The notes beneath the pieces are model-generated. The model was not told where the DNA came from and did not search any database. It worked only from the letters and a program-made list of their open reading frames with translations. Of a stretch of DNA of 64,000 nt, positions 31,318 through 55,266 are shown one piece after another (position 1 is the stretch's first letter; each line of letters starts with the position of its first letter). Origin of the DNA: an uncultured Gammaproteobacteria bacterium (GTDB lineage Bacteria > Patescibacteriota > Patescibacteriia > JACPL01 > CAZRYK01); the NCBI GenBank assembly GCA_964604315.1, contig CAZRYK010000002.1, positions 267-64,266 on the forward strand, in the 5' to 3' direction. Made by a program: the position numbers and the translations under genes.

Positions 31318-31533
31318 ATGAGGTATGTATTTCTGGCCATCCGAACCAAGGGCGGGCAGTGTTACCCGTACTTTCGGGTACTGGAGGAAGTCGAAGCGGT
31401 GAAAGATGAAGTTCTTTTTCGATTCGACTTCGACGTCGAATGTTCAGAAGATTATGAGCGCGCAATAGTAAGAGCGCGCACAGAAGCCGAGAGGCGGGGA
31501 ATCCGCCTCGAGGGTATCGACAACCTCCCTTAG
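31318..31533 (+). CDS. small GC-rich ORF, family member A (hypothetical)
   Basis: GGAGGT Shine-Dalgarno 5 nt before the ATG. The segment DFDVECSEDYERAIVRA...RRGIR resembles NVDASEEEISAIGES...LRGMR of the ORF at 37440-37631. It lies in a local GC-rich islet and overlaps a minus-strand ORF, so the coding strand is not certain. Confidence 0.35.
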   Translation: MRYVFLAIRTKGGQCYPYFRVLEEVEAVKDEVLFRFDFDVECSEDYERAIVRARTEAERRGIRLEGIDNLP

Positions 31534-31922
31534 GCCTTGGGCTTCCCGCTCTGTCGGTAAAACGCAGATGCGCGGAAGCCCTTTGCGGCGGATCACAAGA
31601 TGGTCCGCCGCGTTGGAATTTAGGGCTTGTCCATAAATAACGTTTTCAAGTTCGCTCATATTTGTGCCAGATTTGTCAGAATAAAATCTGAAGAATAGCG
31701 AGCTATTGTGAAGATTTTTTCTGATCAAAGATGGCATAAAGATGAGATGAAATTGGGAAGGTTATTTATGGACAAGGCCTTAGCGCGCGAACATCTTTTA
31801 ATGGGGAAAATATCGCTTTCTTTTATTTGACGGTAAGCCCGTTTTTTGCTAACCTAAAAAGGCTTTGCGTTGAGGAGGAAACAAAAAGAAGAGAAAAGAA
31901 AGATCACTAAAAGAACATCACG

Positions 31923-33089
31923 ATGCGATTTCTTTCTTCGGGGCAAGCAAAGAGATCATGGCAGCGCGTAGTCGCCAGCGCTGTTTGTGTTTCTTTTGCA
32001 TTTGGTTTTGCCACCCCGGTGTCGTTTGCAGACACAACAATGGTTGTGCCGACACCAACCCTCAATGCCCCAGCACAGGGTACGGTGGTGCCTGACGGTA
32101 GTCCGGTGATTACCGGTTGGGTCACAAGTGGATTATTGGTCGAGATCCATATTGACGGTAGCTTCAATGGATGGGCAACCGTCCAAGAGAGTGATTCGGT
32201 AACGGACAGTTTTTATTACACGCCGTTTTTACCGTTAACTCCTGGTGGGCATTCCTACCACGCACGGGCAAAGGATCCGGAAACGGGTGAGCGCAGCATG
32301 CCGACGCAAGAAATCGCATTTCTTGTGGCGGAAAAATTGCCAGCGCCAACCGTTCTGACGCCTGTTGTACGTGCCTCACAATCGCTTCAGCCTCTTGTTG
32401 TAGGGTTAACCTACGGCAATACGACGGTAGAAGTGTTTGTTGATGGAATGTCCCAAGGAAAAGTGACGGTACAAGGCGACCCTGTAAAAGTGGATGATTT
32501 TGCCCTGCAAACCGCGGCGCTTTCCGAAGGCACGCACATGGTTTATGCAGTGGCCACAGACTCTCTTGGTCGAACAAGCATGCATTCGGACGATGTAGAC
32601 TTTACGGTTTCCAAGCCGAAAGTGAGCACAGCAAACACGACGACGTCCGAAGGCGCGCAAAAACCATCGGAAACAGCAAACGAATCTTCGCAAGATGAAA
32701 CCACGGAAAGCGCAAACGACGATGCAGTGGTGTTAGGCGAAGAAGATGATACAGCAGACGATTCCGATGATGTTGCGCCAACCGACGAAGATGACAACGC
32801 CACAGAAGATACGGATGAAGAAACCAATACCAATGAAGAAGCCACAACAACCGACGACGCGGACGATGACAACAATGATCGTTCCGCGCTCGTGACGTGG
32901 ATTGTGGTGATTGCGGTATTGGTGATTATCTTGGCGTTACGCCTGCGCGGAAATTCCGGCGGGAAAACAGGAACAGATGGTACAGCACGCTCCGTGTTTA
33001 CCGGCGACCATTCTTCGAATCCGACAACGGAAACGAAGGATGATGTTCCCCCACCCCCACCTCCGCCACCGTCAAGTTCTTCGTATTAG
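31923..33089 (+). CDS. cell-surface protein: signal peptide, Ig-like domains, acidic low-complexity stalk, C-terminal TM anchor and poly-Pro tail
   Basis: N-terminal hydrophobic signal, repeated beta-sandwich-like modules, a D/E/T-rich region, then a VIAVLVIILAL helix and PPPPPPPPSSSSY. Confidence 0.5.
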   Translation: MRFLSSGQAKRSWQRVVASAVCVSFAFGFATPVSFADTTMVVPTPTLNAPAQGTVVPDGSPVITGWVTSGLLVEIHIDGSFNGWATVQESDSVTDSFYYTPFLPLTPGGHSYHARAKDPETGERSMPTQEIAFLVAEKLPAPTVLTPVVRASQSLQPLVVGLTYGNTTVEVFVDGMSQGKVTVQGDPVKVDDFALQTAALSEGTHMVYAVATDSLGRTSMHSDDVDFTVSKPKVSTANTTTSEGAQKPSETANESSQDETTESANDDAVVLGEEDDTADDSDDVAPTDEDDNATEDTDEETNTNEEATTTDDADDDNNDRSALVTWIVVIAVLVIILALRLRGNSGGKTGTDGTARSVFTGDHSSNPTTETKDDVPPPPPPPPSSSSY

Positions 33090-33264
33090 TTCCGACTTTC
33101 AAAACATCCCTGGGCGTCCCCCGGGGATGTTTGTTGTTACGGGTTCCGAACCTGTACAAGTTCGAAACCTGTAAATGGAAAACTTGACAGGCGGCGGCGG
33201 GTTTTCTATACTAGACACAAGTATCCTTCATAGGATGCTCTTTTTTTCACTCTAAAAAAACATT

Positions 33265-34611
33265 ATGTCAACCGATATCCAAAAAGCCATTCAACAAATT
33301 GCGGAAGAAAAAAATCTTTCTGTCGAGTCGATTATCGAAACCATCGAAGCGGCGTTGGCTGTTGCCTACCGCAAAGATTTTGGCGAAAAAAACCAAAACA
33401 TTGTGGTCGAGTTTGAACCTGCAACAGGGCAGTCTCAAGTGTTCGATGAAAAAACCGTGACCGACAAAATTCCCGAACCTGAAGAAGAGATAAAGGAAGG
33501 CGAAGAGCCCAAAGAGATGATGAGACCTTTTGAGAAAAAAGACGAGCGCGGTGAAATAGTGGAGCTCTCGGAAGAAGAGCGTCCTTTTGATCCCCGTCGG
33601 GAAGTCACCGTAGAGGATGCCAAAAAGTTGAAAGCCGATGCTGTGGTAGGCGATGTGATTCGCACCGAATTAGAAGTGCCGGCGGCGTATGGTCGCATGG
33701 CGGCACAAACCGCCAAACAAGTGATTATTCAAAAATTGCGCGAGGCAGAACGCCAAATGGTCTACGAGGAATTTAAAGATAAGCAAGGAACCTTAATTAC
33801 CGGAAACGTGCAACGCCAAGAAGGCCGTTTGGTGATTGTGGACTTAGGTCGTGCAACAGGTTTAGTGCCACCTAAAGAAACCATTTATGGCGAACGCTTA
33901 AGCCCGGGTCAACGGTTAAAGTTTTATATTGTGGCCGTGAATCAAACGCCCAAAGGCCCAGAGATTTTATTGTCGCGCTCGCATCCGGACATGGTTAAAG
34001 TTTTGTTCACGATGGAAGTGCCAGAGGTTGAATCCGGCACCGTGGAAATTAAAGCAGTGGCGCGTGAAGCGGGAATACGCTCCAAGATTGCGGTGGTGAG
34101 CCACGATTCCAGCATTGACCCGGTGGGAAGTTGCGTGGGCCAACGGGGTACGCGCGTGCAAACTGTGATTTCGGAATTGGGCGGAGAAAAAATCGACATC
34201 ATCGAGCATAACGACGACCCGGTGAAGTTTATTGTAAACGCCCTGTCCCCTGCCAAAGTCCTGTCCGTAAAGTTGTACCCCGAAGAAAAACGCGCCGAGG
34301 CCGAAGTGAAAGAAGATCAGTTATCGTTGGCGATTGGTAAAAGCGGACAGAATGTGCGGCTTTCGGCAAAACTCACGGGGTGGAAGATTGACATCTTAAA
34401 AGAAGATGGTACGTCGGCCGCCGCGCCTAAAGAAGAGAAAGAAACCGAAGCGTCGGTTGATGAAAAAATTGAACAGCCTGAAGAAAAAACTGCCGAAAGT
34501 GAAACCGCGGTAGAAGCAGTAGAAACGGTTGCAGAAAAACCCGAAGAAAAGGCCGAAGAAAAGTCTGCGGAACAATCCGACGACAAACAACCTTCAAACG
34601 ATCAACAATAA
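33265..34611 (+). CDS. nusA: transcription termination/antitermination factor NusA (with a K/E-rich C-terminal extension)
   Basis: NusA N-terminal domain, S1 and tandem KH regions (GKSGQNVRLSAKLTGWKIDI), followed by a low-complexity EK-rich tail. Confidence 0.85.
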   Translation: MSTDIQKAIQQIAEEKNLSVESIIETIEAALAVAYRKDFGEKNQNIVVEFEPATGQSQVFDEKTVTDKIPEPEEEIKEGEEPKEMMRPFEKKDERGEIVELSEEERPFDPRREVTVEDAKKLKADAVVGDVIRTELEVPAAYGRMAAQTAKQVIIQKLREAERQMVYEEFKDKQGTLITGNVQRQEGRLVIVDLGRATGLVPPKETIYGERLSPGQRLKFYIVAVNQTPKGPEILLSRSHPDMVKVLFTMEVPEVESGTVEIKAVAREAGIRSKIAVVSHDSSIDPVGSCVGQRGTRVQTVISELGGEKIDIIEHNDDPVKFIVNALSPAKVLSVKLYPEEKRAEAEVKEDQLSLAIGKSGQNVRLSAKLTGWKIDILKEDGTSAAAPKEEKETEASVDEKIEQPEEKTAESETAVEAVETVAEKPEEKAEEKSAEQSDDKQPSNDQQ

Positions 34612-34632
34612 ATTCATCCTTAATTTGTTTTT

Positions 34633-36627
34633 ATGGATACCTTCTTAAGCTTTGCCATCATCGCGGGCGTCATTGCGCTTGTGTATGGTGTTATTTTGAT
34701 TCGCATGGTCTTAACGCTTCCGGAAGGCGATGAGAAAATGCGAAAAATTGCATCGGCGATTCAAATGGGCGCGAAAGCGTATTTGAACCGTCAAACGCGA
34801 ACCGTGGCCGTGGTTGCGGTGATTTTATTTTTACTCATTTGGTGGCAATTGAATATTCAAACAGCCGGTGGATTTTTGGTTGGCGCGGTGCTTTCTGCTG
34901 TCGCCGGTTACATTGGTATGTTAACGTCGGTGCGCGCCAATGTGCGGACCGCGGAGGCTGCTAAAGGCGGTTTAGAAAAAGCGTTGAAAGTTGCAGTGCG
35001 CGGCGGTACGGTAACAGGTTTATTGGTGGTGGGTTTGGCGTTAATTGGTGTTTCCGGCTACTATGCCATCACCAAAGACATTACCGCTCTTATTGGTTTG
35101 GGTTTTGGCGGCAGTTTAATTTCCATTTTTGCTCGCTTGGGTGGCGGGATTTATACCAAGGCCGCAGATGTGGGCGCGGATCTTGTGGGGAAGGTGGAAG
35201 CCGGAATCCCTGAAGATGACCCGCGCAACCCCGCAGTGATTGCCGATAATGTTGGTGACAATGTTGGTGATTGCGCAGGAATGGCCGCGGATCTTTTTGA
35301 GACCTACGCGGTGTCGGCTGTTGCCGCCATGTTATTTGGTTCGCTGATTTTTCCGGATTTTGACAAAGCCGTTTTGTTCCCATTGGTTTTGGGTGGCGTT
35401 GCGATTTTTGCCAGCATCATTGGAACGTGGTTCATTCGCTTGGGTAAATCCCAAAACATTATGGGCGCGCTGTATAAGGGGTTGGCGGTTGCCGGAATTT
35501 TATCGGCCGTTGCATTCTACCCCGTAACCAATAGCGTCATGGCTGACAACGGTTTGTACAGCACCAATGAACTTTTTGGTTCGGCGTTAGTCGGCTTGGT
35601 GGTGACAGCGTTATTGATCATGATTACCGAATATTACACCGCAACAAAATATAAACCCGTGCAGGCGATTGCCAAAGCCTCGGAAACAGGCCACGGCACC
35701 AACGTGATTGCGGGTTTAGGCGTGTCCATGAAAGCCACCGCCTTGCCCGTGTTGGTGATCGCGGCCGGCATTTTAGCAACCTACCAGTTGGCAGATATTT
35801 ATGGTGTAGCGATTGCGGTCATGTCCATGCTTTCCATGGCAGGGATTGTGGTCACCATCGATGCCTATGGCCCAATCACCGACAACGCCGGTGGAATTGC
35901 CGAAATGGCTGGGCTACCCGAAAGCGTACGGAATGTTACTGATCCGTTGGACGCTGTGGGCAATACCACGAAAGCCGTGACCAAGGGGTATGCCATTGGT
36001 TCCGCAGGGTTAGCCGCCGTGGTATTATTTGCAAGTTACTTAGAAGAATTTTCTGCACGCGGGCAAGATTTGATTTTCGAACTTTCGGACCCGCTAGTTT
36101 TAGTGGGGTTGTTAATTGGTGGCCTGCTTCCGTATTTGTTTGGTGCTATGGCCATGGAAGCGGTGGGGCAAACCGCCGGAGCTGTGGTGAAAGAAGTGCG
36201 CCGACAGTTTTCCGAAAACAAAGGCATTATGGATGGAACCTCGGAACCGGATTATGGACGCACCGTGGATTTGGTTACCAAAGCCGCGATTATGAAAATG
36301 ATTGTTCCGGCGTTGTTACCCGTGGTGATTCCTATTTTGGTGGGCTGGATCCTCGGGCCCGTAGCCTTAGGCGGTTTATTGATTGGTTCCATTGTGACCG
36401 GATTGTTTGTAGCCATTTCTATGACAACGGGTGGCGGCGCATGGGATAATGCCAAAAAATATATTGAAGCCGGGCACCACGGCGGCAAAGGTTCTTTGGC
36501 ACACGCCGCGGCCGTCACAGGCGACACAGTTGGTGACCCCTACAAAGACACCGCCGGCCCTGCCATTAACCCGATGATTAAGATTATCAACATTGTCGCC
36601 TTACTTCTGGTGACCCTGTTGATTTAA
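34633..36627 (+). CDS. hppA: membrane-bound proton/sodium-translocating pyrophosphatase
   Basis: [19 protein letters not shown] and DNVGDNVGD motifs of the H+-PPase family, with about 15 TM helices. Confidence 0.95.
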
Positions 36628-36634
36628 TTTAAAA

Positions 36635-36677
36635 GGGATCCGACCTCTAGAGATCCGACCCCTCTGGGGGTCGGATC
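36635..36677. repeat. REP-family element flanking the transposase 3' end: GGGATCCGACC-TCTAGA-GATCCGACCCC-TCTG-GGGGTCGGATC
   Basis: Direct repeat of GATCCGACC plus an 11-bp perfect hairpin. The RAYT stop codon and last 9 codons lie inside it. Confidence 0.7.
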
Positions 36678-37267
36678 TTGTTTTTGGCATTTTGAAAAAA
36701 GTGAAGATAATCAGGTGGCTCATCGGCCGCAGTATAACGCGACAAAATATCAAAGATTATTTTTGTCTCTATCCATGGTTGTTGCTCGTGAATGTACGCA
36801 TGAATACTTGAATAGGGGTAGGTTAATGGATCCGCGCCAATGTCACGAGGGTTGAGATGAATGTATCGTGTTAAATGAAGAAGATATTCATCTGACGGGA
36901 CAAGAATTGCCTTATATTTCTTTCCGAAGAGCGAGCCATCATGTTGATATTTTTTCTTATAATAAATCGTGTAAGCAGAAATCAAAGATTGCATAAAATG
37001 TGGGAGTGCGCGTTCTTGAGTTTGTTGTAGGGCTATATGATAGTGATTTGGCATCAGAGAAAGACTAATAATTTTAATGAGTCCAAAAAAGTTTTTTCTG
37101 TAGAGCATGGCGTCTGGCTCTGGTTGTGTTACAGCAGATTTTAGGAGATGGTAAAACATTCGGAAATCTTCTTCGTCGCGACAGATGTCATTTTTATCGT
37201 AACCGCGATTAAAAACATGGTAATAGCCATCTTTAACAAATGATCGAATATGGTATTTACTTGGCAT
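36647..37267 (-). mobile_element. IS200-like Y1 HUH transposase gene (PF01797 fold), resembling REP-associated tyrosine transposases (RAYT)
   Basis: 206 aa with YHVFNRG near the N-terminus, the HUH motif in MPNHYHIAL, and the catalytic-Tyr region LTRYIHLNP. A single gene with no tnpB, bracketed by REP hairpins. Confidence 0.7.
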
Positions 37268-37333
37268 ATAAAAATAGGGCGTGTTCGTAGAACGCCCATA
37301 AAACTATATTAGCATGAAAGAATATTTGGTACA

Positions 37334-37361
37334 AGGGATCCGACCTCCAGAGGTCGGATCC
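37334..37361. repeat. REP-family hairpin GGGATCCGACCT-CCAG-AGGTCGGATCCC flanking the transposase 5' side
   Basis: Perfect 12-bp inverted repeat, 67 nt upstream of the RAYT start. Confidence 0.7.
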
Positions 37362-37439
37362 CTCTGGGATTTGTTTTTGGCCGCGGGGCGGGGGTTGGTA
37401 GGATTTCTCCACCTTCCCCCTCCCCGCGTTGCGGGCCGT

Positions 37440-37631
37440 TCATCGGGCGGCGTACTCCTGTGCGGTCCGAAGACCGCGGAGAAACCACTCGATAAACGCA
37501 CGGCTCATGTCATCGGGTCGCATCCCGCGCAACGGGAGCGACTCGCCGATCGCCGAGATCTCCTCTTCGGAGGCATCGACGTTTAGTGACACGAGCCGAC
37601 GTTGCACGGCCAAGAAATTCGACGGGTACAT
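37440..37631 (-). CDS. small GC-rich ORF, family member B (hypothetical)
   Basis: GGAG Shine-Dalgarno 8 nt upstream. It sits in a roughly 500-bp GC-rich islet (37370-37900) and is followed by a GC hairpin CGCGGGGAGGGGG...CCCCCGCCCCGCG. Paralogous to the ORFs at 31318 and 54985. Confidence 0.35.
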   Translation of the reverse strand: MYPSNFLAVQRRLVSLNVDASEEEISAIGESLPLRGMRPDDMSRAFIEWFLRGLRTAQEYAAR

Positions 37632-37955
37632 GTCGTTTCTCCGAAACGAAAAAGGCCTCTTGCTCCCGCACGCGGGAACAACAAGCCTTTTGTGAAGCTT
37701 TAATTCTCCAGTAATGCCGACTGTCGGCTCCGGAGCGCATCCCCGCGGGGGACTTCTTTTACCACCTTACCGCTTCACTATGCGGGCAGGTTGGCGGGAC
37801 GTCACTGGGCGAAGTAGCCCTACGTCCTCTCTTAATGCTGTCTTTTCGAAGATCTAAAGACATCTTAACCAACCCCCCTTCTTTTGTCAAACATTGTTCG
37901 CCGCTGGAAGAATTGATAGAATAAAGTAGTAAATAAATATTTTGTAGCGATCGGA

Positions 37956-38678
37956 TTGCTGTTAAGGAATGAATCGCCGGAGGATCCAATGCTTCATTCC
38001 GTACAGCAAGCCGATCGCTATCTGATACTGCTTCTACCTATGGCTTATCCTTTAATGCGACGAACATTCTTTGACCTTTTTAGTCGCCGCTTCGACCGCC
38101 ACGTTTCTGGCTGGCAGAACCTTCCACCGTCGGGCGCGTACATTATTGCCGCCAACCACGTGAGCTATTTAGACCCCATGATTTTGTTTTCCATTTTTGT
38201 TCGCAAGACGCATTGTAAAATCTTTTTCTTAACCAAAGACGATGTTACGCGTCCGTTGGGCGATAGACTCTCCAACTACTTAGGCATGATTCCGGTGGAG
38301 CTTCACGGCGATAAATCCAAAGCCCTAGACCCGGCCATTCAAAAACTCAAACGTGGCAACGTTATTGGTATTTTTCCTGAAGGCCAGCGCAATACCGAAA
38401 AGGAATTACAAAAAGGCAAAACCGGTGCTGTGCGTTTGGCATTAGCTTCTGGTGTTCCGATTATTCCCACAGGTTTTTTTGGGCCGCCAGGATGGACAAA
38501 ACGCGAAACCGCCAAAAATTATGTGTTGCGCGGCAATGAGGTCGCGGTAAAATTTGGCCCGGCTTTAGATTTTTCCCAACACCGCAACAAAACCGTGACG
38601 CATGACCTTCTGACAACGTTAACCCGTGAGCTCATGCTAAAAATCAGTGAGCTCTGCGACAAACCGTATTCCTATTAA
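37956..38678 (+). CDS. plsC: 1-acyl-sn-glycerol-3-phosphate acyltransferase (PlsC family)
   Basis: HX4D motif NHVSYLD, the FPEGQRN motif, and a PlsC-like length. Confidence 0.75.
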   Translation: MLLRNESPEDPMLHSVQQADRYLILLLPMAYPLMRRTFFDLFSRRFDRHVSGWQNLPPSGAYIIAANHVSYLDPMILFSIFVRKTHCKIFFLTKDDVTRPLGDRLSNYLGMIPVELHGDKSKALDPAIQKLKRGNVIGIFPEGQRNTEKELQKGKTGAVRLALASGVPIIPTGFFGPPGWTKRETAKNYVLRGNEVAVKFGPALDFSQHRNKTVTHDLLTTLTRELMLKISELCDKPYSY

Positions 38679-38680
38679 CT

Positions 38681-39388
38681 ATGCCCTATATTTTTTCCCG
38701 CAACTCGCTTTTAAAACTCCCCGAGCATCGCTTTACGGGCAGTATTAAGGGTATGGAAAATCTTCCAAAGAATCGTCCGTATATTATTGTGGCCAATCAC
38801 GACAACAGCATTGACGCGTATATCTTAATGGCTCCGCTCACACGACGGCTAAATAAAAAGATTCATGTGTTTTCCAACCCCGTGAATCGCGGCGGTCGGC
38901 TCATGCAACTCTTTTTTAAATCGCTGGCCATTTGGTGGGCGGAAGTGATTGTGGTAGACAGAACAAACCGATCACGCAGTTTAGAGGTCGCAAAAAAGTT
39001 TTTAGACAAAGGCGAGCTAGTTGGCATCTTTCCGGAGACCATCGACACAGACGAAAAATATCTGGCCCGTGGTAAGACCGGCATGGTGCGTTTAGCGTTA
39101 GCGGCTAAAGTGCCAATTGTGCCCATTGGCATGTATGGTGGGCCAAACATGGAAGGCATTCGCGAAAACATCAAATATTTTCTGAAGCGAAAAGAAGTGC
39201 GCCAACACATTCGCATCGGGGAACCGATAGAGTTTACAAAGTATGACGGCAGAGTCGCAAATTATGAACTGCTCGCAGATGTGACCATAGAGGTCATGCA
39301 AGCTATTGCCAAATTGTGCGGCAAAGAGTATGTTTATACCAAACGTCAGTGGATGGAGGAATACCGACAACATTATAAGGGGGATTGA
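38681..39388 (+). CDS. second PlsC-family lysophospholipid acyltransferase
   Basis: HDNSID (HX4D) and FPET motifs. It is translationally coupled to the upstream paralog. Confidence 0.7.
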   Translation: MPYIFSRNSLLKLPEHRFTGSIKGMENLPKNRPYIIVANHDNSIDAYILMAPLTRRLNKKIHVFSNPVNRGGRLMQLFFKSLAIWWAEVIVVDRTNRSRSLEVAKKFLDKGELVGIFPETIDTDEKYLARGKTGMVRLALAAKVPIVPIGMYGGPNMEGIRENIKYFLKRKEVRQHIRIGEPIEFTKYDGRVANYELLADVTIEVMQAIAKLCGKEYVYTKRQWMEEYRQHYKGD

Positions 39389-39404
39389 TTCTAACGAAGC
39401 GCTT

Positions 39405-40859: not shown

Positions 40860-40886
40860 AAGAAGTTAGCAGATGGTAGATAGTAG

Positions 40887-45686: not shown

Positions 45687-45704
45687 AGGCGGTAGCTTAT
45701 TTAA

Positions 45705-46016
45705 GCCGGGGTGGTGAAATTGGTATACACGAGGGACTTTAACAATATGAGCACCGGTTGCGGAAACGCTCCGTGTGAATGAGGTCAAATTCGGGGAAGC
45801 CCTGACGTCACGTCGAGGTAATCCCGAGCCAATCCCCGTACCGTACGGTGCAGGGCAGGTGTAGAGACTTAACGGCCTCCTCCTACGTGTCACAAGCATA
45901 TGGAGAAGAGAGAGTCCAGACTACGAACCACGTAAAAAGCGTGGGCGATGAAAATCGAAGTAGTATGAAAATCCCTTGGGAGCAATCCCGTGCGGGTTCG
46001 AGTCCCGCCCTCGGCA
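45705..46016 (+). tRNA. tRNA-Leu (anticodon UAA) interrupted by a 228-nt group I intron between U34 and A35
   Basis: 5' exon GCCGGGGTGGTGAAATTGGTATACACGAGGGACTT (3-bp D-stem and long D-loop typical of type II tRNAs). 3' exon AAAATCCCT + TGGGAGCAATCCCGT (long variable arm) + GCGGGTTCGAGTCCCGC + CCTCGGC + A. The exons only form a cloverleaf once 45740-45967 is removed. Confidence 0.8.
45740..45967 (+). ncRNA. group I self-splicing intron in the tRNA-Leu(UAA) anticodon loop
   Basis: Inserted at the canonical U34/A35 site used by cyanobacterial/plastid tRNA-Leu(UAA) introns. It follows an exon U, ends in G (omega-G), and contains the P7-like CAGACTACG and GGGAAGCCCTGACG core-like segments. Confidence 0.7.
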
Positions 46017-46537: not shown

Positions 46538-46983
46538 TTTTTTGTTATTATTAGTGGCGTGCGCTTTGCGCACCCGAATTAGTTGCCGCCAAAGAAAAAC
46601 TTGAAATTGTCAGCGGTGCGGCTCCGTCGCCTTTCCGAATTTTCGCGGGGGGGGTTCCTCGCCGCCGCAGGCGGCGAAATGCGTTCGGACTAATTCAAGA
46701 ATACTGCACAAAGATTTTCTAGAGCTCATCTCAAAAATAGCTTTCTTGGTATTTCAGATGCCCTTTGCGCCGAAACACTTGAAGGATGAGGAGGAATGGT
46801 GGGACTATTTCGACGAGTCCTGAATGTGTTGCAGGCCAAAGGGCGTGTTATTCGGCCGGAAGATTATTTTTAAGATGAGTTCTAGCAAAAGTAGCCCTTT
46901 CTTGCTACCATAAAGTTATGGTTATTTTTATTGCAGGGTTAATTGGTGTTTAGGGAGTAATTTAGCAAGATTAAAACTCGCAC

Positions 46984-48078
46984 ATGAACTCCACCCAAAA
47001 AATTCTTTTTTCCGCGGCTTTTTTGGTGCTTGCCAGTGGACTTCTGGTTGCGGCTTTGTGGTATACATCGCAACGGACGGTAACGAACGTGGTGGAGAAT
47101 GAGACAAATTCCAACGTGAATAATAGTGAGACAGAATCTAACACAATCCCTCTAGACACTTTCCCCGAATCAGAAACGGTTGCACCACCGATTTCGATTC
47201 TTGCGGTTGGCGATATTATGCTCGGCCGTTATGTGCAAACATTGATGGAGAAAAATGGCGAAGACTATCCGTTCGCAAAAATTGGTGATTTGTTTGACAG
47301 TCACGACGTCGTGCTTGCCAATCTTGAAGGGCCGATTCAAGACGGGCCAAGAACACCAGATGATTCTCTTGTTTTCCGGTTCCCCGAATATACTGCACCA
47401 CTTTTAGCGCGTCAGGGTATTACGCATGTTTCGCTTGCAAATAATCACACGCTGAATCAAGGTCAGGCAGGTTTAGATAATACACGATCCGTCCTCGCAC
47501 AAAATCGCATCTCATTTTTTGGCGATCCGGTGCAGGATGGCGAGCAGGTGTTAGCAGAAGAAATCGAAGGAATGCCGATAACATGGATTGGTGCCAATGC
47601 CGCGGTGCGCAGTCTTGATGCTGATGCCATAACGCGCGAAATTCAAAAAAATAGCAACGGTAATGTGATAGTATTTGTGCATTGGGGAAACGAATATGTG
47701 CATACGCCATCAAGCTTACAACGCGAACTTGCGCATGAATGGGTAGATGCGGGCGCCGATGTGGTTATTGGTCATCACCCGCATGTGATTCAAACTGTGG
47801 AACTGTACAATGACCATATGATTTTTTATTCCCTCGGCAATTTTATTTTTGATCAATATTTTTCGCGCGACACCCAAGAGATGTTGGCGGTAAATCTTTT
47901 GTTAGAAGAAGAGACTGTAACGGCAAAACTCATTCCGTTAACGTCTACGCGCAGCCAGCCACAAATTGCCGACGAAACACAAAAAAACGAAATCTTAAAA
48001 AAGATCGCAGATTGGAGCGACCCTTCCATCCGCGCCGCCATTCTGAAAGGCGAATTCATTTTAAAACGGACAGACTAG
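46984..48078 (+). CDS. capA: CapA-family protein (poly-gamma-glutamate biosynthesis / metallophosphoesterase-like)
   Basis: ILAVGDIMLGR, ANLEGP, ANNHTLNQG, HWGNEY and GHHPHV motifs of the PGA_cap/CapA family, with an N-terminal TM anchor. Confidence 0.8.
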   Translation: MNSTQKILFSAAFLVLASGLLVAALWYTSQRTVTNVVENETNSNVNNSETESNTIPLDTFPESETVAPPISILAVGDIMLGRYVQTLMEKNGEDYPFAKIGDLFDSHDVVLANLEGPIQDGPRTPDDSLVFRFPEYTAPLLARQGITHVSLANNHTLNQGQAGLDNTRSVLAQNRISFFGDPVQDGEQVLAEEIEGMPITWIGANAAVRSLDADAITREIQKNSNGNVIVFVHWGNEYVHTPSSLQRELAHEWVDAGADVVIGHHPHVIQTVELYNDHMIFYSLGNFIFDQYFSRDTQEMLAVNLLLEEETVTAKLIPLTSTRSQPQIADETQKNEILKKIADWSDPSIRAAILKGEFILKRTD

Positions 48079-48148
48079 CATTCATACAAATGTAAATGAA
48101 AAAGAGCCGGACGACGCCGACTCTTTTTGTGCAGTTTTTGTGCTTCAA

Positions 48149-49468
48149 TTAAAACGTCAACTTATACATATCGGCTGTGCCGTGATAGGTATAGGGTTTT
48201 GAGTACACCCAAAACATGCGGTGTTGCGCGTCAACGGTAAATGTCTGATACGGCCCGTACGCGTTGTAGTCAACTCGTGTTCCCATAGTGAACGTGCCAT
48301 TCGCATCAACATCCGCAGAAGAAAAATAGACGTTCTTCCAACCAATGCGTGCGCGATTTGGATCTGTTGGACTCTTTATGATCGTTGCTCGATATTTCGC
48401 GTCTGTTGCCAGCGTAGCGACTGGTTCGGTAAATGTGCCGTCGGTGTTTACGCGGAACGTCATAACATTGCCAACATTATTACTCACCTGCTCTTTGAGA
48501 GCAACAAGCGTATGGCTACCATCAAAAGAAACGGCATCCAACGTGTTTACCGAAATCCAAAAGTAATCAAGCGGTCTTTCGTAGAAGAGCGTTCGGTCTG
48601 TGGTGACGTTTCCGGCCGTATCGTATTGCTTCAGATAAAATCCGTCATATTCGTTCCATAAGACCGTTAGCCGCCCGGCTTGCGGATCGAACGTTGCGGC
48701 AAGATCAGAACCAAATGGAACCGCAGAGGCCACCGTCACCGGATCGCCAAGAGGCGTGCCGTTCATGGCAATACGCTGATACGTTATATCTCGTGAAAAC
48801 GGTTCGGCTACGGGTTCTTCGAAAACCACGATCATTTCATTTTCGTTCATAGGAAGCAGGAAATACTCATTAAACACTTTGTCGTAGCTTGGATCGTCGC
48901 GCTCAACGAGCGTCACGGGGTTTCCAAGTTTCTGCCCATCCAAAGTATACCGCTGTCCTTTGATATATGTTTTTCCGGAAAGTTGCGGCCGCATCACATA
49001 GGTTTGCAAGATCTCACGATCCCCGCCGTTGGTTAAAAGAAGAAGTGGCATAACTTGTGGAGTGCCGAATCCAAATTTGCAGCAGAACGACGACCATCGC
49101 ACAGCGCCGGTTGTGGCATTCAGTGCCGTTAGCATCACCCCGTTGGTGTCCCTGCTCGTTGACGCGGAATTAATATACAAAGTGTCATCAACAACCAGAA
49201 GGCCGGAGTCCACCACTTTTTGCGTCAGCGGGTTCTCTCTTGTCCACGCCGGTTCCAATATTTCTGACGCCGCGGCTTGCTTTATGCGGTCTGTCGGAAA
49301 TCCTGCAATACTGAAAATAGTAACAACTGCCACACTTACGCCCAATGCGAGCGATTTTAAAATATTGCCCTTCACACTGAACCAAAAACTTTTTATATGT
49401 ACGTTTCTCATAGAGAAAAAAGTTAGGATGAATACGCTGAAACTATACCTAATTGTGTGGCGTGTCAA
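48149..49468 (-). CDS. hypothetical secreted beta-rich protein
   Basis: Signal-peptide-like N-terminus (KSLALGVSVAVVTIFSIAG), then about 380 aa of beta-strand-rich sequence with no catalytic motif. Confidence 0.4.
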   Translation of the reverse strand: MTRHTIRYSFSVFILTFFSMRNVHIKSFWFSVKGNILKSLALGVSVAVVTIFSIAGFPTDRIKQAAASEILEPAWTRENPLTQKVVDSGLLVVDDTLYINSASTSRDTNGVMLTALNATTGAVRWSSFCCKFGFGTPQVMPLLLLTNGGDREILQTYVMRPQLSGKTYIKGQRYTLDGQKLGNPVTLVERDDPSYDKVFNEYFLLPMNENEMIVVFEEPVAEPFSRDITYQRIAMNGTPLGDPVTVASAVPFGSDLAATFDPQAGRLTVLWNEYDGFYLKQYDTAGNVTTDRTLFYERPLDYFWISVNTLDAVSFDGSHTLVALKEQVSNNVGNVMTFRVNTDGTFTEPVATLATDAKYRATIIKSPTDPNRARIGWKNVYFSSADVDANGTFTMGTRVDYNAYGPYQTFTVDAQHRMFWVYSKPYTYHGTADMYKLTF

Positions 49469-49483
49469 GCGGCTGTGAGCGAT

Positions 49484-49527
49484 TTGGCAAGAGCTTAGCT
49501 CTTGCCTAAATACGGCAAAAGCTTAGC
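49484..49527. terminator. tandem hairpins GGCAAGAGCTTAGCTCTTGCC and GGCAAAAGCTTAGCTTTGGCC
   Basis: Two adjacent 9-bp-stem hairpins between convergent or serial minus-strand genes. Same family as 19441-19461 and 55318-55338. Confidence 0.5.
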
Positions 49528-49544
49528 TTTGGCCAAAAAATGCC

Positions 49545-50333
49545 TTAAGGCTTCGACACCTGCCACAGTGCCTGAAACCAGACACGGTAGCTGTCGGCAA
49601 GAGCGCGGCTACGCAACACAAAGAACACGGCGTTGTCATCGATACGCAAAATGCGACAACCGGTATAGGTGACCACGTAATCACCAAAGACATTGATAAT
49701 GGAATCGGTGGAATATTGTTGTGGCAAAACACGATATTCTAATTCGCCCAGAAAATGTTTGGGGAAGTTGGGAATCTTTTGTACCGCTTCATAATTAAAA
49801 AGTTCAATAAACTTCATTTTCTTGCGGTTCGCCTCTTTAAAAAAGGATTTTGCTGATGTTTCCATGCGCGGGTCAAACCACGCCGCGTTTGCCCCTACCG
49901 CATAAACCGTTTCTTCCACACGTAAACAATCGCGCCACACATTTTTTTGCCCCTCCAACCCGCGGTAAATATACGCCTCTTCTGGTGACTGCTGTTTTTG
50001 GTATTTGGATTCCAGCTCGGGCATAATGCCTTGAATTTTCTGTTGCTTTTCTCCTAGGATTTCTAACAACTTTCCCGGATCTACTGGGCTGTATTTATTG
50101 TCTTTGCTGGAAAAAATAGGGAAGCATAACCCCTTGGCCACTAAACGCTCAATGGTGTCATAGGCGTTGCGTCGATTAATGCCGGTTTTAATCGAAATTT
50201 GGGGGACACTGGATTCGCCCAAATTCAATAATGCCTCATAGATTTTTGCTTCATTTGGGCTAAGACCAGCGGATTGTAAGATTTCTTGATACATATATGG
50301 TGGTGAATAACCATCAGTGGTTGCCTTTGCCAC
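49545..50333 (-). CDS. TrmB-family transcriptional regulator (paralog 4)
   Basis: wHTH LSPNEAKIYEALLNLGESSVPQISIKTGINRRNAYDTIERLVAKGL plus a TrmB-type C-terminal domain. Confidence 0.75.
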   Translation of the reverse strand: MAKATTDGYSPPYMYQEILQSAGLSPNEAKIYEALLNLGESSVPQISIKTGINRRNAYDTIERLVAKGLCFPIFSSKDNKYSPVDPGKLLEILGEKQQKIQGIMPELESKYQKQQSPEEAYIYRGLEGQKNVWRDCLRVEETVYAVGANAAWFDPRMETSAKSFFKEANRKKMKFIELFNYEAVQKIPNFPKHFLGELEYRVLPQQYSTDSIINVFGDYVVTYTGCRILRIDDNAVFFVLRSRALADSYRVWFQALWQVSKP

Positions 50334-50385
50334 TCAACATGAATAATATACCATGATCGGAAATTAATCAATAGCTCAAAATAGT

Positions 50386-51396
50386 ATGAAAACCAACTTT
50401 ATTCTTTTTATTGCGCTTGCAGTTGTTGTGGCCGCCGGCGCGTGGAAATTCTATCTTTCACCAGAATCATTGCCAAAAGAAGCAGAAGTTTTAGAAACAA
50501 CAACCGTGAAGATTGCAAACTTGCCCGTTGTGCAGGGGTTGCCGTTATATCTTGCTATAGAGAAAGGCTATTTTAAAGAAGCGGGTCTGAATGTGGAAAT
50601 GGTAAAGTTCGAAGCGCCGAATCAAATCATCGACGCCTTGCTTCAAGGACAGGTAGATTTTTCCTCGCCAAGTGGCGCCATGGGAATCACCGGAATCGCG
50701 GATTTTAAAAATCCCGGAAAATTAAAAATTTATGCGGCTGGCGGAGGCACAAGCCTCATTCAAAACGATGCGATTTTGGTAAAAAACGACAGCATGATTC
50801 GTTCGTTTGAAGATTTGCAGGGAAAGAAATTAGGCATTGTTGCCGGAAGCATTCAATGGCGAACCATTGCGCGTGATATTTTGGCGAAAAATAATTTAAT
50901 CGCGGATCAAGATGTTACGCTTGTGGAAATTGCCTTAAGTTTGCAGGCAGAAAGTTTGGCAATAGGCCAAGTAGATGCGTTATTAGGCATTGAACCCATC
51001 CCGACGATTGTGAAGTCAAAAAATATCGGGAAAGAAATTGTTGACCATGTGACAACGCGCTATATTGCTGACCCCTTTTACGCCGGCGCAGGAATTGTGC
51101 GTGAAGATTTTGCTGCACAAAACCCAAACACCACAAAAAAAGTTTTAGACGTTTTTGAACAAACTATTAACGAAATAAACGCCGATCCCGATGCCGCGCG
51201 TCTGTATCTTAAAGGTTATACCGCTCTTGATGATGTTGCGATTGCGAAAGTACCTATTTCCACTTTCACGTTTTATAGCGATTTCACTCAAGAAGATATT
51301 GACGCGGTGCAGAAATTTTATGACATCTTCACGACCTTTGGCGTTGTTGGCGGGCGCATAGATTTTGAAAAACTTTTGTATTCGTCTTCGCAATAA
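50386..51396 (+). CDS. ABC transporter substrate-binding protein, NMT1/SsuA-like (second operon)
   Basis: N-terminal anchor and a periplasmic binding fold (VKIANLPVVQGLPLYLAIEKGYFKEAGL) homologous to 26927-27925. Confidence 0.7.
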   Translation: MKTNFILFIALAVVVAAGAWKFYLSPESLPKEAEVLETTTVKIANLPVVQGLPLYLAIEKGYFKEAGLNVEMVKFEAPNQIIDALLQGQVDFSSPSGAMGITGIADFKNPGKLKIYAAGGGTSLIQNDAILVKNDSMIRSFEDLQGKKLGIVAGSIQWRTIARDILAKNNLIADQDVTLVEIALSLQAESLAIGQVDALLGIEPIPTIVKSKNIGKEIVDHVTTRYIADPFYAGAGIVREDFAAQNPNTTKKVLDVFEQTINEINADPDAARLYLKGYTALDDVAIAKVPISTFTFYSDFTQEDIDAVQKFYDIFTTFGVVGGRIDFEKLLYSSSQ

Positions 51397-51401
51397 GATT
51401 T

Positions 51402-52130
51402 ATGCTTAACAACCAACAACAAAAACAAGTACAGCGGCAGATTGCGGCTTATGAAAAACGGAAAGGTGTTGATCGTATTGCTATTCCTATTGATCAAGAA
51501 AGATTTGTTATTGAGATCGATCCTTTTGTTGCAAATCCAAGAATGATGAATTCCGGTTTGCAGATGGTGCAGTATTTATTAGAACGACCACAGCTTGTTT
51601 ATGACAAAGTTGTTGTGGATATGGGAACAGGTTGTGGGATCTTGGGTATTGTTGCCGGATTATTGGGAGCAAAAAAGGTTTTGATGATGGATGTGGACCA
51701 AAAAGCGGTTGCAAATGCCAAGCGAAATATTCAAAGGCTGGGACTTAGCGCAATATGCGAAGCGTTCTGTAGTGATTTGTTTAAGAACTATGGTGACCGC
51801 CCGAAAGCTGATGTGCTCATTTTTAATCATCCCTTCTTTGCCGCACGCGCTCTTTATGGAAAACCATGGACGCGGATGATGCTCGGCGGAACCACTCTTA
51901 TTGCAAATTTTTTAGCACAAGCGCCACGCTTCTCCTATGAGGATTCATTGTACATTCTGCTATTTATGAACATGGCGGGTTACCGTGACAGCCGAATCGA
52001 TAACGATCCGGGGAAAAGATCTCAAGCTTATGGTTTTGAAATAGTAAACATCACAGAACAAAAAGCCGTGAAAAGCGGATTACAGCGTACGAAATTTAAG
52101 ATTTACGAATTGAGACATACCGGCAAATGA
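51402..52130 (+). CDS. SAM-dependent methyltransferase (MTS/HemK-RsmC-like, with an NHPF motif) embedded in the ABC operon
   Basis: Motif I VVDMGTGCGILG and a motif IV-like VLIFNHPF, which is an NPPY/NPPF variant. Confidence 0.6.
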   Translation: MLNNQQQKQVQRQIAAYEKRKGVDRIAIPIDQERFVIEIDPFVANPRMMNSGLQMVQYLLERPQLVYDKVVVDMGTGCGILGIVAGLLGAKKVLMMDVDQKAVANAKRNIQRLGLSAICEAFCSDLFKNYGDRPKADVLIFNHPFFAARALYGKPWTRMMLGGTTLIANFLAQAPRFSYEDSLYILLFMNMAGYRDSRIDNDPGKRSQAYGFEIVNITEQKAVKSGLQRTKFKIYELRHTGK

Positions 52131-52870
52131 GTATTTCTATTCAAAACCTAAAAAAATCCTTTAGCGGCGCTGAAGTCTTTCAAAATTTCAGTGCGGATTT
52201 TGAAGAGGGAATCATTACCGCGATTGTTGGGCCAAATGGTTCGGGGAAAAGTACGCTATTAAATATTTTGTCGGGAATTCTTCCAAAAGATAGCGGTGAA
52301 TTTTCCATAAAAGAATTCCATCCGTTCCATTTTAGTTACATTTTCCAAAATTACCGCGAGTCGTTGTTGCCATGGCAAACGAATGCCGAAAACATTGCGT
52401 TGCCGCTTCAGATTCAAAAATATAGCAAAGAACAGATTCAACGCCACATTCACGATCTGCTTACCTTTACGGGATTACCCATAAACTTACAGCAATATCC
52501 GTATGAGCTAAGTGGTGGGCAGCAGCAAATGCTAGCTTTTTGCCGCGCACTTATAACACGGCCGAGTCTTCTTTTTATTGATGAACCTTTCTCGGCGCTG
52601 GATTACGAAAATAATTTACGTCTACGCGGGGTTTTGCAAAAATATTATATCGCTTTTAAACCAACCATTACTTTAATAACGCATAATATTGAAGAAGCGG
52701 TGCATCTGGCTCAAAAGATTGTCGTCTTTTCCCAAAAACCTACACAAGTTGTTGCGGTTATTGATAACCCCTTGCCTTTCCCGCGAACGATTGAATCGCT
52801 AAAATCGTCGGAGTTCGATGATTTGAAGGATAAGGTGCTTTCAATTTTTCAAAAAGTCGCCCACGTATGA
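52127..52870 (+). CDS. ABC transporter ATP-binding protein
   Basis: Walker A GPNGSGKSTL, signature LSGGQQQ, Walker B LLFIDEP. Its start overlaps the upstream stop (ATGA). Confidence 0.85.
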   Translation: MSISIQNLKKSFSGAEVFQNFSADFEEGIITAIVGPNGSGKSTLLNILSGILPKDSGEFSIKEFHPFHFSYIFQNYRESLLPWQTNAENIALPLQIQKYSKEQIQRHIHDLLTFTGLPINLQQYPYELSGGQQQMLAFCRALITRPSLLFIDEPFSALDYENNLRLRGVLQKYYIAFKPTITLITHNIEEAVHLAQKIVVFSQKPTQVVAVIDNPLPFPRTIESLKSSEFDDLKDKVLSIFQKVAHV

Positions 52871-53610
52871 AACGCGCCTACCTTATTGGCCCGGTTTTTT
52901 TCATTGCGCTATGGGCCTTTGTTACAAGAGTTCAGCTTGTTGATACTTTTTTCTTACCCAGCCCTTTTTTAACCATAAGAAAATTAGTAGAGCTTTTCCA
53001 ATATGGTGGCATGACAAACGATTTTTTTGCAACCGTGAAACGTGTTGGTTTAGCTTTTGGGATTGCCTCCCTTATTGGTGTGCCATTGGGGCTTGTGCTA
53101 GGTAGTAAAGAAAAGGTTTACCGCAGTGTGGAGTTTATGATTGATTTTTTTCGCTCTACGCCAGCAACTGCGCTTTTCCCGCTTTTTCTTTTACTCTTTG
53201 GCATCACCGATAAATCAAAAATTGCCGTGGCCGCGTTTACCTCGGTTCTGGTAATTGTTTTTAACACGGCGTATGGCGTGATGCATACAAAGAAATCGCG
53301 ATTATTGGCAGCTCAGTTGATGGGCGCAGGAAAAACGCAAATCTTCCGCTGGATTTTATTCTGGGAAAGTTTACCGCAAACAGTTGTGGGTTTGCGAAGC
53401 GCCGTGAGTCTCTCGTTGATCGTCATTATTGTCACGGAAATGTTTATTGGGACAACCGTTGGGCTAGGGCGAAGAATTATTGATGCCCAAATCACCTATG
53501 AAATCCCGGCTATGTATGCCACTATTCTGCTAACAGGAATTTTAGGTTATCTTCTAAACCTGCTTTTTGTTGTTATAGAAAAACGCTTCTTACACTGGAG
53601 CGGCAAGTGA
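52867..53610 (+). CDS. ABC transporter permease (NitT/TauT family)
   Basis: Six TM segments with an EAA-like loop. Its start overlaps the ATPase stop. Confidence 0.8.
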   Translation: MKRAYLIGPVFFIALWAFVTRVQLVDTFFLPSPFLTIRKLVELFQYGGMTNDFFATVKRVGLAFGIASLIGVPLGLVLGSKEKVYRSVEFMIDFFRSTPATALFPLFLLLFGITDKSKIAVAAFTSVLVIVFNTAYGVMHTKKSRLLAAQLMGAGKTQIFRWILFWESLPQTVVGLRSAVSLSLIVIIVTEMFIGTTVGLGRRIIDAQITYEIPAMYATILLTGILGYLLNLLFVVIEKRFLHWSGK

Positions 53611-54076
53611 CTTTTGTTAATCTTCGCATTTAAACCATATCGAAGGTTGTACAAGTAGCAAACTTGAATCCTTATTATTGGCAAATTATGAGGATTCGCT
53701 CTACTAGAAATTGATCAATTTTAAGGATATATGGAAATGCCTCGCTCAATCTGGCAAACACTAAAGTGTTGGACAGTTTTTGTGCTTGACAGAGAAAAGA
53801 GATGGAGTGCAGTTAAAGTGTTGAGGCAGTGACGTGCCGGGGCGTCATCTTAGCTTGGCTCGCGCCTAATGGCGAGCCGCCGGCCGAGCCGGTAAAACGG
53901 ATCCCTCTGCGGAGACGGGTCCGGCCCCCAATCGTCTAGCTTCAACAGGGAGGGCGGTAGCCTTTGTGCCGCCCTCCCACCACTCCCATTTTTGAAATCA
54001 GCATAAGAAACAGACTCGAGCGCTAGATACCAAACACTTGGTGCTTGGTATTGTATTCTTAAACACGACAATGGGT

Positions 54077-54835
54077 TTATTTTCCCAATCGATCCCACAA
54101 AAGCTGGAAAATAATTTTTTGTAAATCCGCGAATTCTTTGGATTCAATAATCACGGCCATTTTTTCTTTCCATGACGCAATCAACATTTTATCGTTATAG
54201 ATTTTTACTTCTGGTGAAAAGGTGAGGGTTGGATCTGGTAAAAATTTTGTCTCGCGTAGTGCGTGGCGCTCCAGGGTGGCGCGCGCACGCGACACTTCGT
54301 TTTGTACAAAGATAGCGCGAATGGGAATTTTCTTTTTCGCTCGACGTTGAAAATACTCGGGGAAAAAGTTGGGTAATGTTTCGAGCATGGTTTGGACATT
54401 GGTATACGCTAACATTTTCCCTTTGCATGTTAGGGAGTCTTCATAAGCTTCACGCAAGCCCTTTTCTCCCTCATAGAATTGAACTTTTGGCCGTGTGGTG
54501 TGGAAGTTTTGCAAAGATAAAAATTCTGGCAGCACATTTTCCATTAATTTTTTCTGCTTTTGGAAGCTGCGCTCTTTTTCGCGTGCCTCGCGCTCTAAAT
54601 AATGAATGAGCTCTCGCGGATCAAGCGCTTGAAAATGCGTTTTTGCGCCTTTTTTGTATTTACTCACCACACCCCGATGGATAAGAGATTCAAGAATATC
54701 ATAGACAGTTGCGCGGATATATTGCGTGTGTTTGGCAAGTTGTGCCGCGGTGGCATCGCCTAAAGTAATAAGGGCAAGGTAGATGTTGGATTCTTTATCC
54801 GAGAACCCAATAGCTCGAAGTGTTTGGTGAAGCAT
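54077..54835 (-). CDS. TrmB-family transcriptional regulator (paralog 5)
   Basis: wHTH FSDKESNIYLALITLGDATAAQLAKHTQYIRATVYDILESLIHRGVV plus a TrmB-type C-terminal domain. Confidence 0.75.
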   Translation of the reverse strand: MLHQTLRAIGFSDKESNIYLALITLGDATAAQLAKHTQYIRATVYDILESLIHRGVVSKYKKGAKTHFQALDPRELIHYLEREAREKERSFQKQKKLMENVLPEFLSLQNFHTTRPKVQFYEGEKGLREAYEDSLTCKGKMLAYTNVQTMLETLPNFFPEYFQRRAKKKIPIRAIFVQNEVSRARATLERHALRETKFLPDPTLTFSPEVKIYNDKMLIASWKEKMAVIIESKEFADLQKIIFQLLWDRLGK

Positions 54836-54984
54836 AAAGTTGTAGAAAATATCTCGACAGATTTACTATATAATATTAGCGAATAATTAGCAATATATAA
54901 AGGGATATTCGGTAGTATATTGGCGATATCTACAGTTTTTGTACAGTCAAAGAAGGTTGCCTCGTGAAACACAAGGAGGAAGCG

Positions 54985-55266
54985 ATGGCTGAAAGCACGC
55001 CAGATGGGCTTACGCCAGAGGACCTCGAAGACATCATGCGTCTCATCGAGGAGTTCGCACAGGAGGAAGGGGACCCGCAGTTGGTAGAGCGGATGAGAAA
55101 GGCGTTTCAGCGCGGATATGAGGGGCCGCCACTGACGCCAGAGGAGGCAGAGAACGAGGGACGCAAGCTCCTCGCCGCGATAGCTCACCGTGCTGATATC
55201 GTCTTTGCTCGTTTGAGCCTGACCGATGTCGTCGAAGAGTGGGTGAAGCGCATGACGCGCAAGTAA
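54985..55266 (+). CDS. small GC-rich ORF, family member C (acidic hypothetical protein)
   Basis: AAGGAGGAAG Shine-Dalgarno directly upstream of the ATG. Very high GC at third codon positions. TPEDLEDIMRLIEEF...MRKAFQRG resembles the family A/B segments. It is divergent from a TrmB paralog, as A is. Confidence 0.45.
   Translation: MAESTPDGLTPEDLEDIMRLIEEFAQEEGDPQLVERMRKAFQRGYEGPPLTPEEAENEGRKLLAAIAHRADIVFARLSLTDVVEEWVKRMTRK

Follow-up and report, generated by a model that had tools for sequence, protein, structure and literature searches.

We analysed a stretch of 64,000 nucleotides from the 73-kb contig CAZRYK010000002.1 (hereafter the window) and focused on three small open reading frames (ORFs) in GC-rich islets: ORF1 at 31318-31533 on the plus strand, ORF2 at 37440-37631 on the minus strand, and ORF3 at 54985-55266 on the plus strand. 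In our reading, they are small-gene units of restricted lineage in a Patescibacteria-like genome, unrelated to one another and each with separate expression signals; we give this reading as a whole a probability of about 0.55. Islets rich in GC that hold small ORFs can therefore, even within a single genome, differ widely in their causes.

The window has a GC content of 45.6%, and its H+-pyrophosphatase (HPPase) showed a best identity of 71%, with metagenome-assembled genomes of the Patescibacteria/Paceibacteria type. A genome scan with this protein recovered NusA-HPPase as the sole synteny kept with GTDB representatives, which is uninformative for the islets. Pieces identical to the window were present in the Logan assemblies SRR12113385, SRR12113420 and SRR12113422. 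We compared the islets with three relatives: L085, from another metagenome; L086, a closer relative than L085 (about 91% nucleotide identity); and L087 (GCA_040960375.1), with flanks about 84% identical.

Comparison of the three small ORFs

An earlier note, made from the sequence alone, had described the ORFs as one family of small acidic genes sharing a peptide segment. The ORFs lie where that note had placed them, each behind a Shine-Dalgarno (SD) sequence (GGAGG 4 nt before the ATG of ORF1, GGAG 7 nt before ORF2, and AAGGAGG 5 nt before ORF3). Divergent TrmB-family genes (PF01978 above cut-off) lie 175 bp from ORF1 and 150 bp from ORF3, a transposase gene of the REP-associated tyrosine transposase (RAYT) type lies beside ORF2, and long overlapping ORFs occupy the opposite strands, all as described; the transposase gene has repetitive extragenic palindromes (REPs) on both sides. 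The shared segment was not recovered, and no pairwise or profile similarity was found among the three peptides: BLASTP returned either no alignment or E = 7.2, the Smith-Waterman scores were reached by 45%, 75% and 25% of 1000 shuffles (p = 0.45, 0.75 and 0.25), and in hhalign the profile of ORF3 and its homologue P0004 (see below) matched ORF1 and ORF2 with probabilities of 0.13% and 0.19%.

The term acidic fits ORF3 (net charge -8) but not ORF1 (-3) or ORF2 (-1). Similarly, the contrast in GC and in GC at third codon positions (GC3) was clear for ORF2 (GC 0.61, GC3 0.73) and ORF3 (0.59, 0.68) but marginal for ORF1 (0.52, 0.57), compared with a mean GC3 of 0.47 (sd 0.065) for the genes of the window, where no credible gene exceeded 0.56. 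The local GC peak near ORF1 (31451-31650) consists mainly of two hairpins 3' of the stop codon. As for context, ORF1 and ORF3 are divergent from two TrmB genes, TrmB1 and TrmB2, that are 23-27% identical to each other, while ORF2 lies behind a putative riboswitch (37843-37690, minus strand), which the earlier note had overlooked together with a fourth GC islet at 53786-53995. A link between the islets through common DNA repeats was rejected, with no repeat family found in common.

Peptide similarity was thus absent, while conservation of the ORF itself in a relative was found for ORF3. A single family is not supported. The suggestion that the small genes are horizontally acquired or specially maintained stands in a modified form: the GC3 excess of ORF3 is maintained, TrmB2 and ORF3 are present or absent together, and in a close relative another GC-rich ORF fills the slot of ORF2.

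Searches of Pfam, NCBIfam and PHROGs with the ORFs and their overlapping frames gave nothing meaningful, nor did a sequence search of the PDB, where ORF3 matched designed helical repeats only. Nothing was found with tblastn against plasmids or in scans of viral contigs, and Rfam searches at permissive thresholds, covering all islets and the L087 slot, returned only chance microRNA or viral matches. Foldseek searches of the PDB with the AlphaFold models of ORF2 and ORF3 gave E above 4. In a word-indexed search of 5.8 billion proteins each of the three ORFs matched only itself; that search also missed the true homologue of ORF3, and absence there is therefore weak evidence.

The TrmB2-ORF3 module

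Features of the interval are as follows.
54077..54835, minus strand: TrmB2 gene (PF01978, 52.4 bits, cut-off 25.6), with a promoter-like site at 54893-54865
54836..54984: divergent control region between TrmB2 and ORF3, with conserved blocks in the alignment with L085
54920-54925 and 54942-54947, plus strand: candidate ORF3 promoter, TTGGCG and TACAGT separated by 16 nt
54973-54979, plus strand: SD of ORF3, AAGGAGG
54985..55266, plus strand: ORF3, gene for a 93-aa acidic helical protein, homologue P0004
55274..55301, plus strand: terminator-like hairpin of ORF3, GGCCCC..CTAAGCAATTAGG..GGGGCC, loop also kept in L085

A full HMMER scan of 1.84 billion representative proteins with ORF3 found one homologue, P0004 (E 8.8e-7), which is 45% identical to ORF3 over 65 aa and ends in the same C-terminal TRK-stop. 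The earlier note had proposed to look in relatives for small ORFs next to TrmB genes, and such a pair was found in L085: the P0004 gene lies 143 bp from a divergent TrmB gene that is 80% identical to TrmB2. L085 also retains the SD, the blocks between the two genes and, loop included, the hairpin 3' of the stop codon. GC3 in L085 is 0.71 for the small ORF and 0.45 for the adjacent TrmB gene. This contrast is present even though TrmB third positions differ at 90 of 157 sites, and it is therefore maintained and not the result of recent import. A GC3 excess that persists across saturated synonymous divergence points to a constraint on the composition of a small gene that has yet to be explained. 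The codon-phase GC signal of ORF3 was strong (p = 1.6e-5), its RNA was not unusually structured (fold z 0.4 to -1.4), and a single-sequence AlphaFold model showed four helices (pLDDT 65).

In L086, 390 bp separate the permease gene from the RNase J gene, and TrmB2 and ORF3 are gone except for a 44-nt stub of the TrmB2 3' end, which is flanked by copies of a palindrome family. On the basis of these comparisons, ORF3 is a real gene, and TrmB2-ORF3 is one accessory module, present or absent as a unit among relatives. The palindromes around the stub belong to the second palindrome family of the window (TGGCAAAAGCTTAGCTTTGGCCA; 19439-19466, 49481-49536 and 55313-55340; about 5270-5400 in L086), and the copies bracketing the stub may have mediated a deletion or rearrangement.

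The module is a concrete pair of a regulator and a small protein. TrmB2 would most likely bind conserved boxes within the 149 bp between the two genes, controlling both its own gene and ORF3, and the ORF3 product would be a small acidic four-helix protein, the partner of the divergent TrmB2. A functional pairing of ORF3 with TrmB2 is credible on these grounds. As in known arrangements of a TrmB regulator and a divergent target, the regulator has a winged-helix domain of the TrmB type at its N-terminus, conserved blocks occur in a short shared control region, and regulator and neighbour are inherited together; unlike in those systems, the partner is an acidic helical protein of 78-93 aa instead of a sugar transporter or enzyme, and binding by TrmB2 is putative. 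Small acidic DNA-mimic or anti-repressor proteins can be encoded beside a transcription factor (e.g. DMP19 with NHTF in Neisseria), which serves here as a lead only. ORF3 resembles DMP19-type DNA mimics in being small, helical, strongly acidic, and genetically tied to a DNA-binding regulator, but the searches found neither a sequence nor a fold match (Foldseek against the PDB, E above 4).

The fourth GC islet (53786-53995, plus strand; peak GC 0.61) lies between the permease gene and the 3' end of TrmB2. It folds strongly (z -5.65), is 76% identical to its L086 counterpart with five compensatory pairs, ends in a GC hairpin plus U-run, and had no Rfam match. The L086 counterpart is on the other side of the TrmB2 stub. 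By its folding and pair conservation, this islet looks like a conserved structured RNA.

A predicted riboswitch of the SAM-I clan ahead of ORF2

Upstream of ORF2 we identified the following features, all on the minus strand.
37862..37890: sigma-70-type promoter, TTGACA-17-TAAGAT (10 of 12 matches; TTGACA kept in L087), divergent from the acyltransferase gene at 37956
37690..37843: S-adenosylmethionine (SAM)-clan riboswitch aptamer (RF01725, 43.0 bits, cut-off 41.1)
Aptamer helices: P1, 37838-37835 with 37740-37737; P2, split, then P3; P4, 37751-37741; P5, 37735-37706
37644..37691: intrinsic terminator and expression platform, 18-bp stem plus UUUUUCGUUU (U-run), kept in L087 with wobble-compatible changes

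The match to the SAM-I/IV family (RF01725) passed the gathering threshold with E = 0.0012 over the whole window. The covariance model does not score the pseudoknot, but both a pseudoknot (PK-2) and P4 are present. PK-2 would pair the P3 loop GUGAA(G) (37778-37773) with the complementary 3' tail (C)UUCAC (37697-37692), 3' of P5; both strands are identical in L087, and we estimate the probability of a chance match at about 0.01-0.05. The stretch that Rfam treats as an insertion, compared with canonical SAM-I/IV examples (74 bits), corresponds to a short P4 helix (CCCC-CGC-GGGG) that aligns with the canonical CCCCGCAAGGGG of L091-L093. P2 contains an internal loop and a P2b hairpin that align to the P2a/kink-turn/P2b region of SAM-I, and the P2b loop ACUUC is complementary to GAAGU in J3/4, which makes a candidate PK-1. 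Both P2 and P5 bear insertions.

The full structure model is 98.4% paired in both the window and L087, compared with 39-51% when partners are slid. A core run of about 75 nt in the aptamer is unchanged in L087, against an identity of about 84% for the adjacent acyltransferase genes. The changes between the two sequences keep pairs (one compensatory, three wobble-compatible): P5 GCCG/CGGC became GCCC/GGGC, P1 U.G became C-G, and the terminator shows wobble swaps; with two sequences, this covariation is out of reach of significance. Conservation of the aptamer, terminator and SD exceeds that of the neighbouring genes, and pairing survives their substitutions, which argues that the riboswitch is still in use.

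From its predicted fold, the aptamer is filed under the SAM-I clan as a variant with a split P2 and a candidate PK-1. SAM riboswitches are usually tied to sulfur and methionine genes. The aptamer shares with SAM-I/IV (clan CL00012) the core motifs GCAUyAAGAG, CCAACC, AAGGUGG and GAUGC, the short P4, the P5 hairpin, PK-2, and an intrinsic-terminator platform. A PK-2 that links the P3 loop to the 3' tail is a defining feature of SAM-IV and SAM-I/IV, and SAM-I/IV is described with an unsplit P2 and without PK-1 (PMC6890682). The window aptamer differs from this in its P2, which is split as in SAM-I and SAM-IV, in the possible PK-1, and in the insertions in P2 and P5; in addition, its score barely exceeds the cut-off and that of L087 falls under it, and an orphan, strain-variable small ORF follows in place of a methionine or SAM gene. 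The combination of features from SAM-I, SAM-IV and SAM-I/IV is relevant to the diversification of the SAM-I clan.

The predicted order is promoter, aptamer, intrinsic terminator, and SD-ORF2. With plentiful SAM, transcription would stop at the terminator (SAM-off); with low SAM, a highly structured mRNA for a small protein would be made. Folding of truncated transcripts gave no convincing alternative helix for an anti-terminator, a pairing of the 3' strands of P4 and P1 with the terminator 5' strand being seen by eye only. A metagenome scan with a riboswitch-core pattern returned only three unrelated canonical SAM-I/IV riboswitches.

The variable slot and its surroundings

Features downstream of the terminator are as follows.
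37440..37642, minus strand: variable slot with SD GGAG (37642-37639) and ORF2 (37631-37440, 63 aa), structured sense RNA, replaced in L087
37382..37428, minus strand: GC hairpin at the 3' edge of the slot, 92% identical to L087 566-618, unique in the window
37333..37363: REP palindrome (GGGATCCGACC...), one of at least five copies in the window, flanks RAYT
37277-37297: terminator-like hairpin upstream of RAYT
36647..37267, minus strand: RAYT, an IS200-like Y1 transposase gene (PF01797, 29.1 bits vs 23)

The alignment with L087 runs at 84% identity from the acyltransferase genes to 37639 and resumes at 92% over the GC hairpin (37428-37376); homology thus ends just past the SD and returns 10-17 nt beyond the stop codon. 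Promoter, aptamer, terminator, SD and downstream GC hairpin are all retained, and between them L087 has 265 nt in place of the 211-nt ORF2 segment, with a 79-codon ORF (GC 0.70) whose start lies 7 nt past the SD. The two inserts showed no similarity in any frame by blastn, tblastx or Smith-Waterman. The body of ORF2 would thus be an exchangeable allele within a conserved frame, and the slot would give rise to structured transcripts, with or without a small protein as product. The AlphaFold model of ORF2 has three helices and found no Foldseek match.

Several candidate systems were considered for the slot. A type II antitoxin (ribbon-helix-helix or AbrB) was rejected for ORF2 and the L087 ORF: there was no Pfam or NCBIfam match (E up to 0.1 for ORF2 in Pfam; up to 1 in NCBIfam and for the L087 ORF in Pfam), and no toxin gene follows. 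For an integron cassette, no integrase was noticed among the neighbours examined and the GC hairpin is single-copy in the window; core sites were not systematically examined. A diversity-generating retroelement was dismissed by reasoning, the inserts being unalignable and of different lengths, with no search for a template repeat or reverse transcriptase; a retron was likewise dismissed without any reverse-transcriptase search.

The REP-type family (AAGGGATCCGACCTCnnGAGGTCGGATCCCTT) has intergenic copies at 12342-12369, 23581-23614, 36633-36678, 37333-37363 and 59555-59588, and flanks RAYT on both sides. Its core GGATCCGACC matched 13 times in the window compared with 2.6 expected, both RAYT flanks included. 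This resembles the REP/RAYT arrangement, a Y1_Tnp gene flanked by GC-rich palindromes with copies dispersed between genes; unlike there, RAYT is merely a neighbour of ORF2, and the slot is bounded by the terminator and SD and by the unique GC hairpin, not by REP copies. Beyond the hairpin, L087 (279-620) carries a different palindrome (AAGTACGGTACTT...AAGTACGGAACTT) in place of the REP copy, and about 20 codons of the RAYT N-terminus are left, overlapped by the gene of a signal-peptide protein. On this comparison, the HPPase-acyltransferase interval is rearrangement-prone.

ORF1 and TrmB1

Features of this interval are as follows.
30409..31143, minus strand: TrmB1 gene (PF01978, 40.0 bits, cut-off 25.6), with a promoter-like site at 31204-31176
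31270-31296: 27-nt palindrome upstream of ORF1
31309..31533, plus strand: SD GGAGG and ORF1 (71 aa), in palindrome-rich DNA
31539..31611, plus strand: two GC-rich hairpins 3' of the ORF1 stop codon, most of the local GC peak

The frame of ORF1 was open in 4.9% of shuffles, and its codon-phase GC signal gave p = 0.003. From its SD and this codon-phase signal, the two observations on which the assignment is based, ORF1 is probably a small orphan gene, transcribed divergently from TrmB1, the distant paralogue of TrmB2. A metagenome scan with TrmB1 as query gave no match. An AT-rich hairpin of about 160 nt, similar to a miniature inverted-repeat transposable element, with 32-nt arms that are 84% complementary and further inner pairing, separates ORF1 from the next gene (31619-31782); this hairpin gave spurious plant microRNA matches in Rfam.

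Alternative explanations

Several results weigh against three independent small-gene units. No protein homologue of ORF1, ORF2 or the L087 ORF was found in Pfam, NCBIfam, PHROGs, the PDB, plasmids, viral contigs or the word-indexed set of 5.8 billion proteins, and for ORF1 no orthologous locus was found either, the contig of the relative beginning at window position 31938. The single-sequence AlphaFold models were moderate (pLDDT 68.6 for ORF2, 64.7 for ORF3). The riboswitch is not followed by a gene of SAM or methionine metabolism, as the ORFs behind it (63 aa; 79 aa in L087) match no family, and the L087 aptamer is below every Rfam cut-off (best SAM-I, 31.8 bits vs 44.4). Finally, the frames at the slot would be open by chance with probabilities of 0.17 (ORF2) and 0.24 (L087 ORF) given their composition, and both inserts fold strongly in the sense direction only, which also fits non-coding RNA.

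These last two results lead to an unlikely but serious alternative, that the slot is untranslated and encodes SAM-controlled structured non-coding RNA, with ORF2 and the 79-codon ORF as by-products of GC-rich sequence. The sense z-scores relative to dinucleotide shuffles were -5.1 (ORF2 insert) and -5.8 (L087 insert) compared with -2.8 and -0.7 in antisense, and no GC-rich control fell below -3.8 (64 windows from loci of more than 62% GC; mean z -0.47, sd 1.23). Equally long open frames arose in 17-24% of shuffles, five overlapping ORFs cover the ORF2 region, and the missing protein homologues would be expected. Against this, both non-homologous inserts have an ATG 7 nt past the conserved SD and a frame that closes near the insert end, the codon-position GC follows the ORF phase (p = 0.006 for ORF2; 0.78 / 0.45 / 0.86, p = 5e-9 for the L087 ORF), and neither insert matches an Rfam family. 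The open frames alone do not favour translation, but the kept SD-ATG geometry together with the codon-phase signal does, and we therefore retain translated small genes as the preferred reading.

We consider it distinctly improbable that the frames of ORF1 and ORF2 are without meaning, lying in palindromic or REP-like intergenic DNA of high GC, or in foreign DNA captured beside RAYT, with the riboswitch a relic whose original gene was lost. Palindromes are indeed dense in the DNA of ORF1, which folds well on either strand (z -4.0 and -5.5), several dispersed palindrome families occur in the genome, the HPPase-acyltransferase interval is rearranged in L087 with a RAYT N-terminal stub followed by a different gene, and a SAM-related gene is absent downstream. 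However, the conservation of aptamer, terminator and SD above that of the neighbouring coding genes, with pairing-preserving substitutions, argues against a relic, and both ORFs have strong, well-spaced SD sites and a codon-phase GC signal.

If the preferred reading of ORF2 is extended to a function, a riboswitch conserved more tightly than its neighbours and yet placed before interchangeable orphan ORFs would point to SAM-controlled biology outside metabolism, here in a bacterial group with almost unexplored regulation. As a long shot, we propose that a SAM riboswitch of a hitherto undescribed hybrid build (SAM-I-like split P2 and PK-1 combined with P4, P5 and PK-2) gates an exchangeable cassette in ultrasmall bacteria of the candidate phyla radiation (CPR), releasing strain-specific structured small-ORF RNAs at low SAM; the product might be an alarm effector for low SAM (SAM-degrading phages, host starvation) or a SAM-controlled regulatory RNA, with allele turnover under diversifying selection.

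A single family of small acidic, TrmB-linked proteins, from which all three peptides would have diverged, deserves hardly any credence: ORF1 and ORF3 do start at comparable distances from divergent TrmB-family genes, and all three are short with an SD and raised GC at first and third codon positions, but besides the lack of similarity and the unequal charges reported above, P0004, the true homologue of ORF3, is unlike both ORF1 and ORF2, the identity of TrmB1 and TrmB2 is low, and a third TrmB paralogue (L089) has no called small divergent partner.

Other features of the window

An 860-bp region with no long ORF contains, about 260 nt downstream of tRNA-Gly(GCC), a group I intron match just at the cut-off (50.9 bits vs 50; 45729-45935, plus strand). 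A direct repeat of 53 nt with perfect copies (24560-24612 and 25830-25882) surrounds a 374-aa gene (24702-25826); in L089 and L090, the sequence runs straight from about 24612 into sequence matching 25830-25884, which suggests that the 1.27-kb segment inserted into the window genome. GC-rich palindromic repeats of 81 nt, in two families with 85-94% identity (12808-12888 and 13181-13261; 12940-13020 and 13809-13889), adjoin the tRNA-Arg, tRNA-Ala and tRNA-Val genes. Finally, the ABC-transporter-like genes upstream of TrmB1 (26927-30265) have low GC (0.35-0.42) and, unlike many genes of the window, no cluster mates at 90% identity or more; this segment may be another accessory segment.

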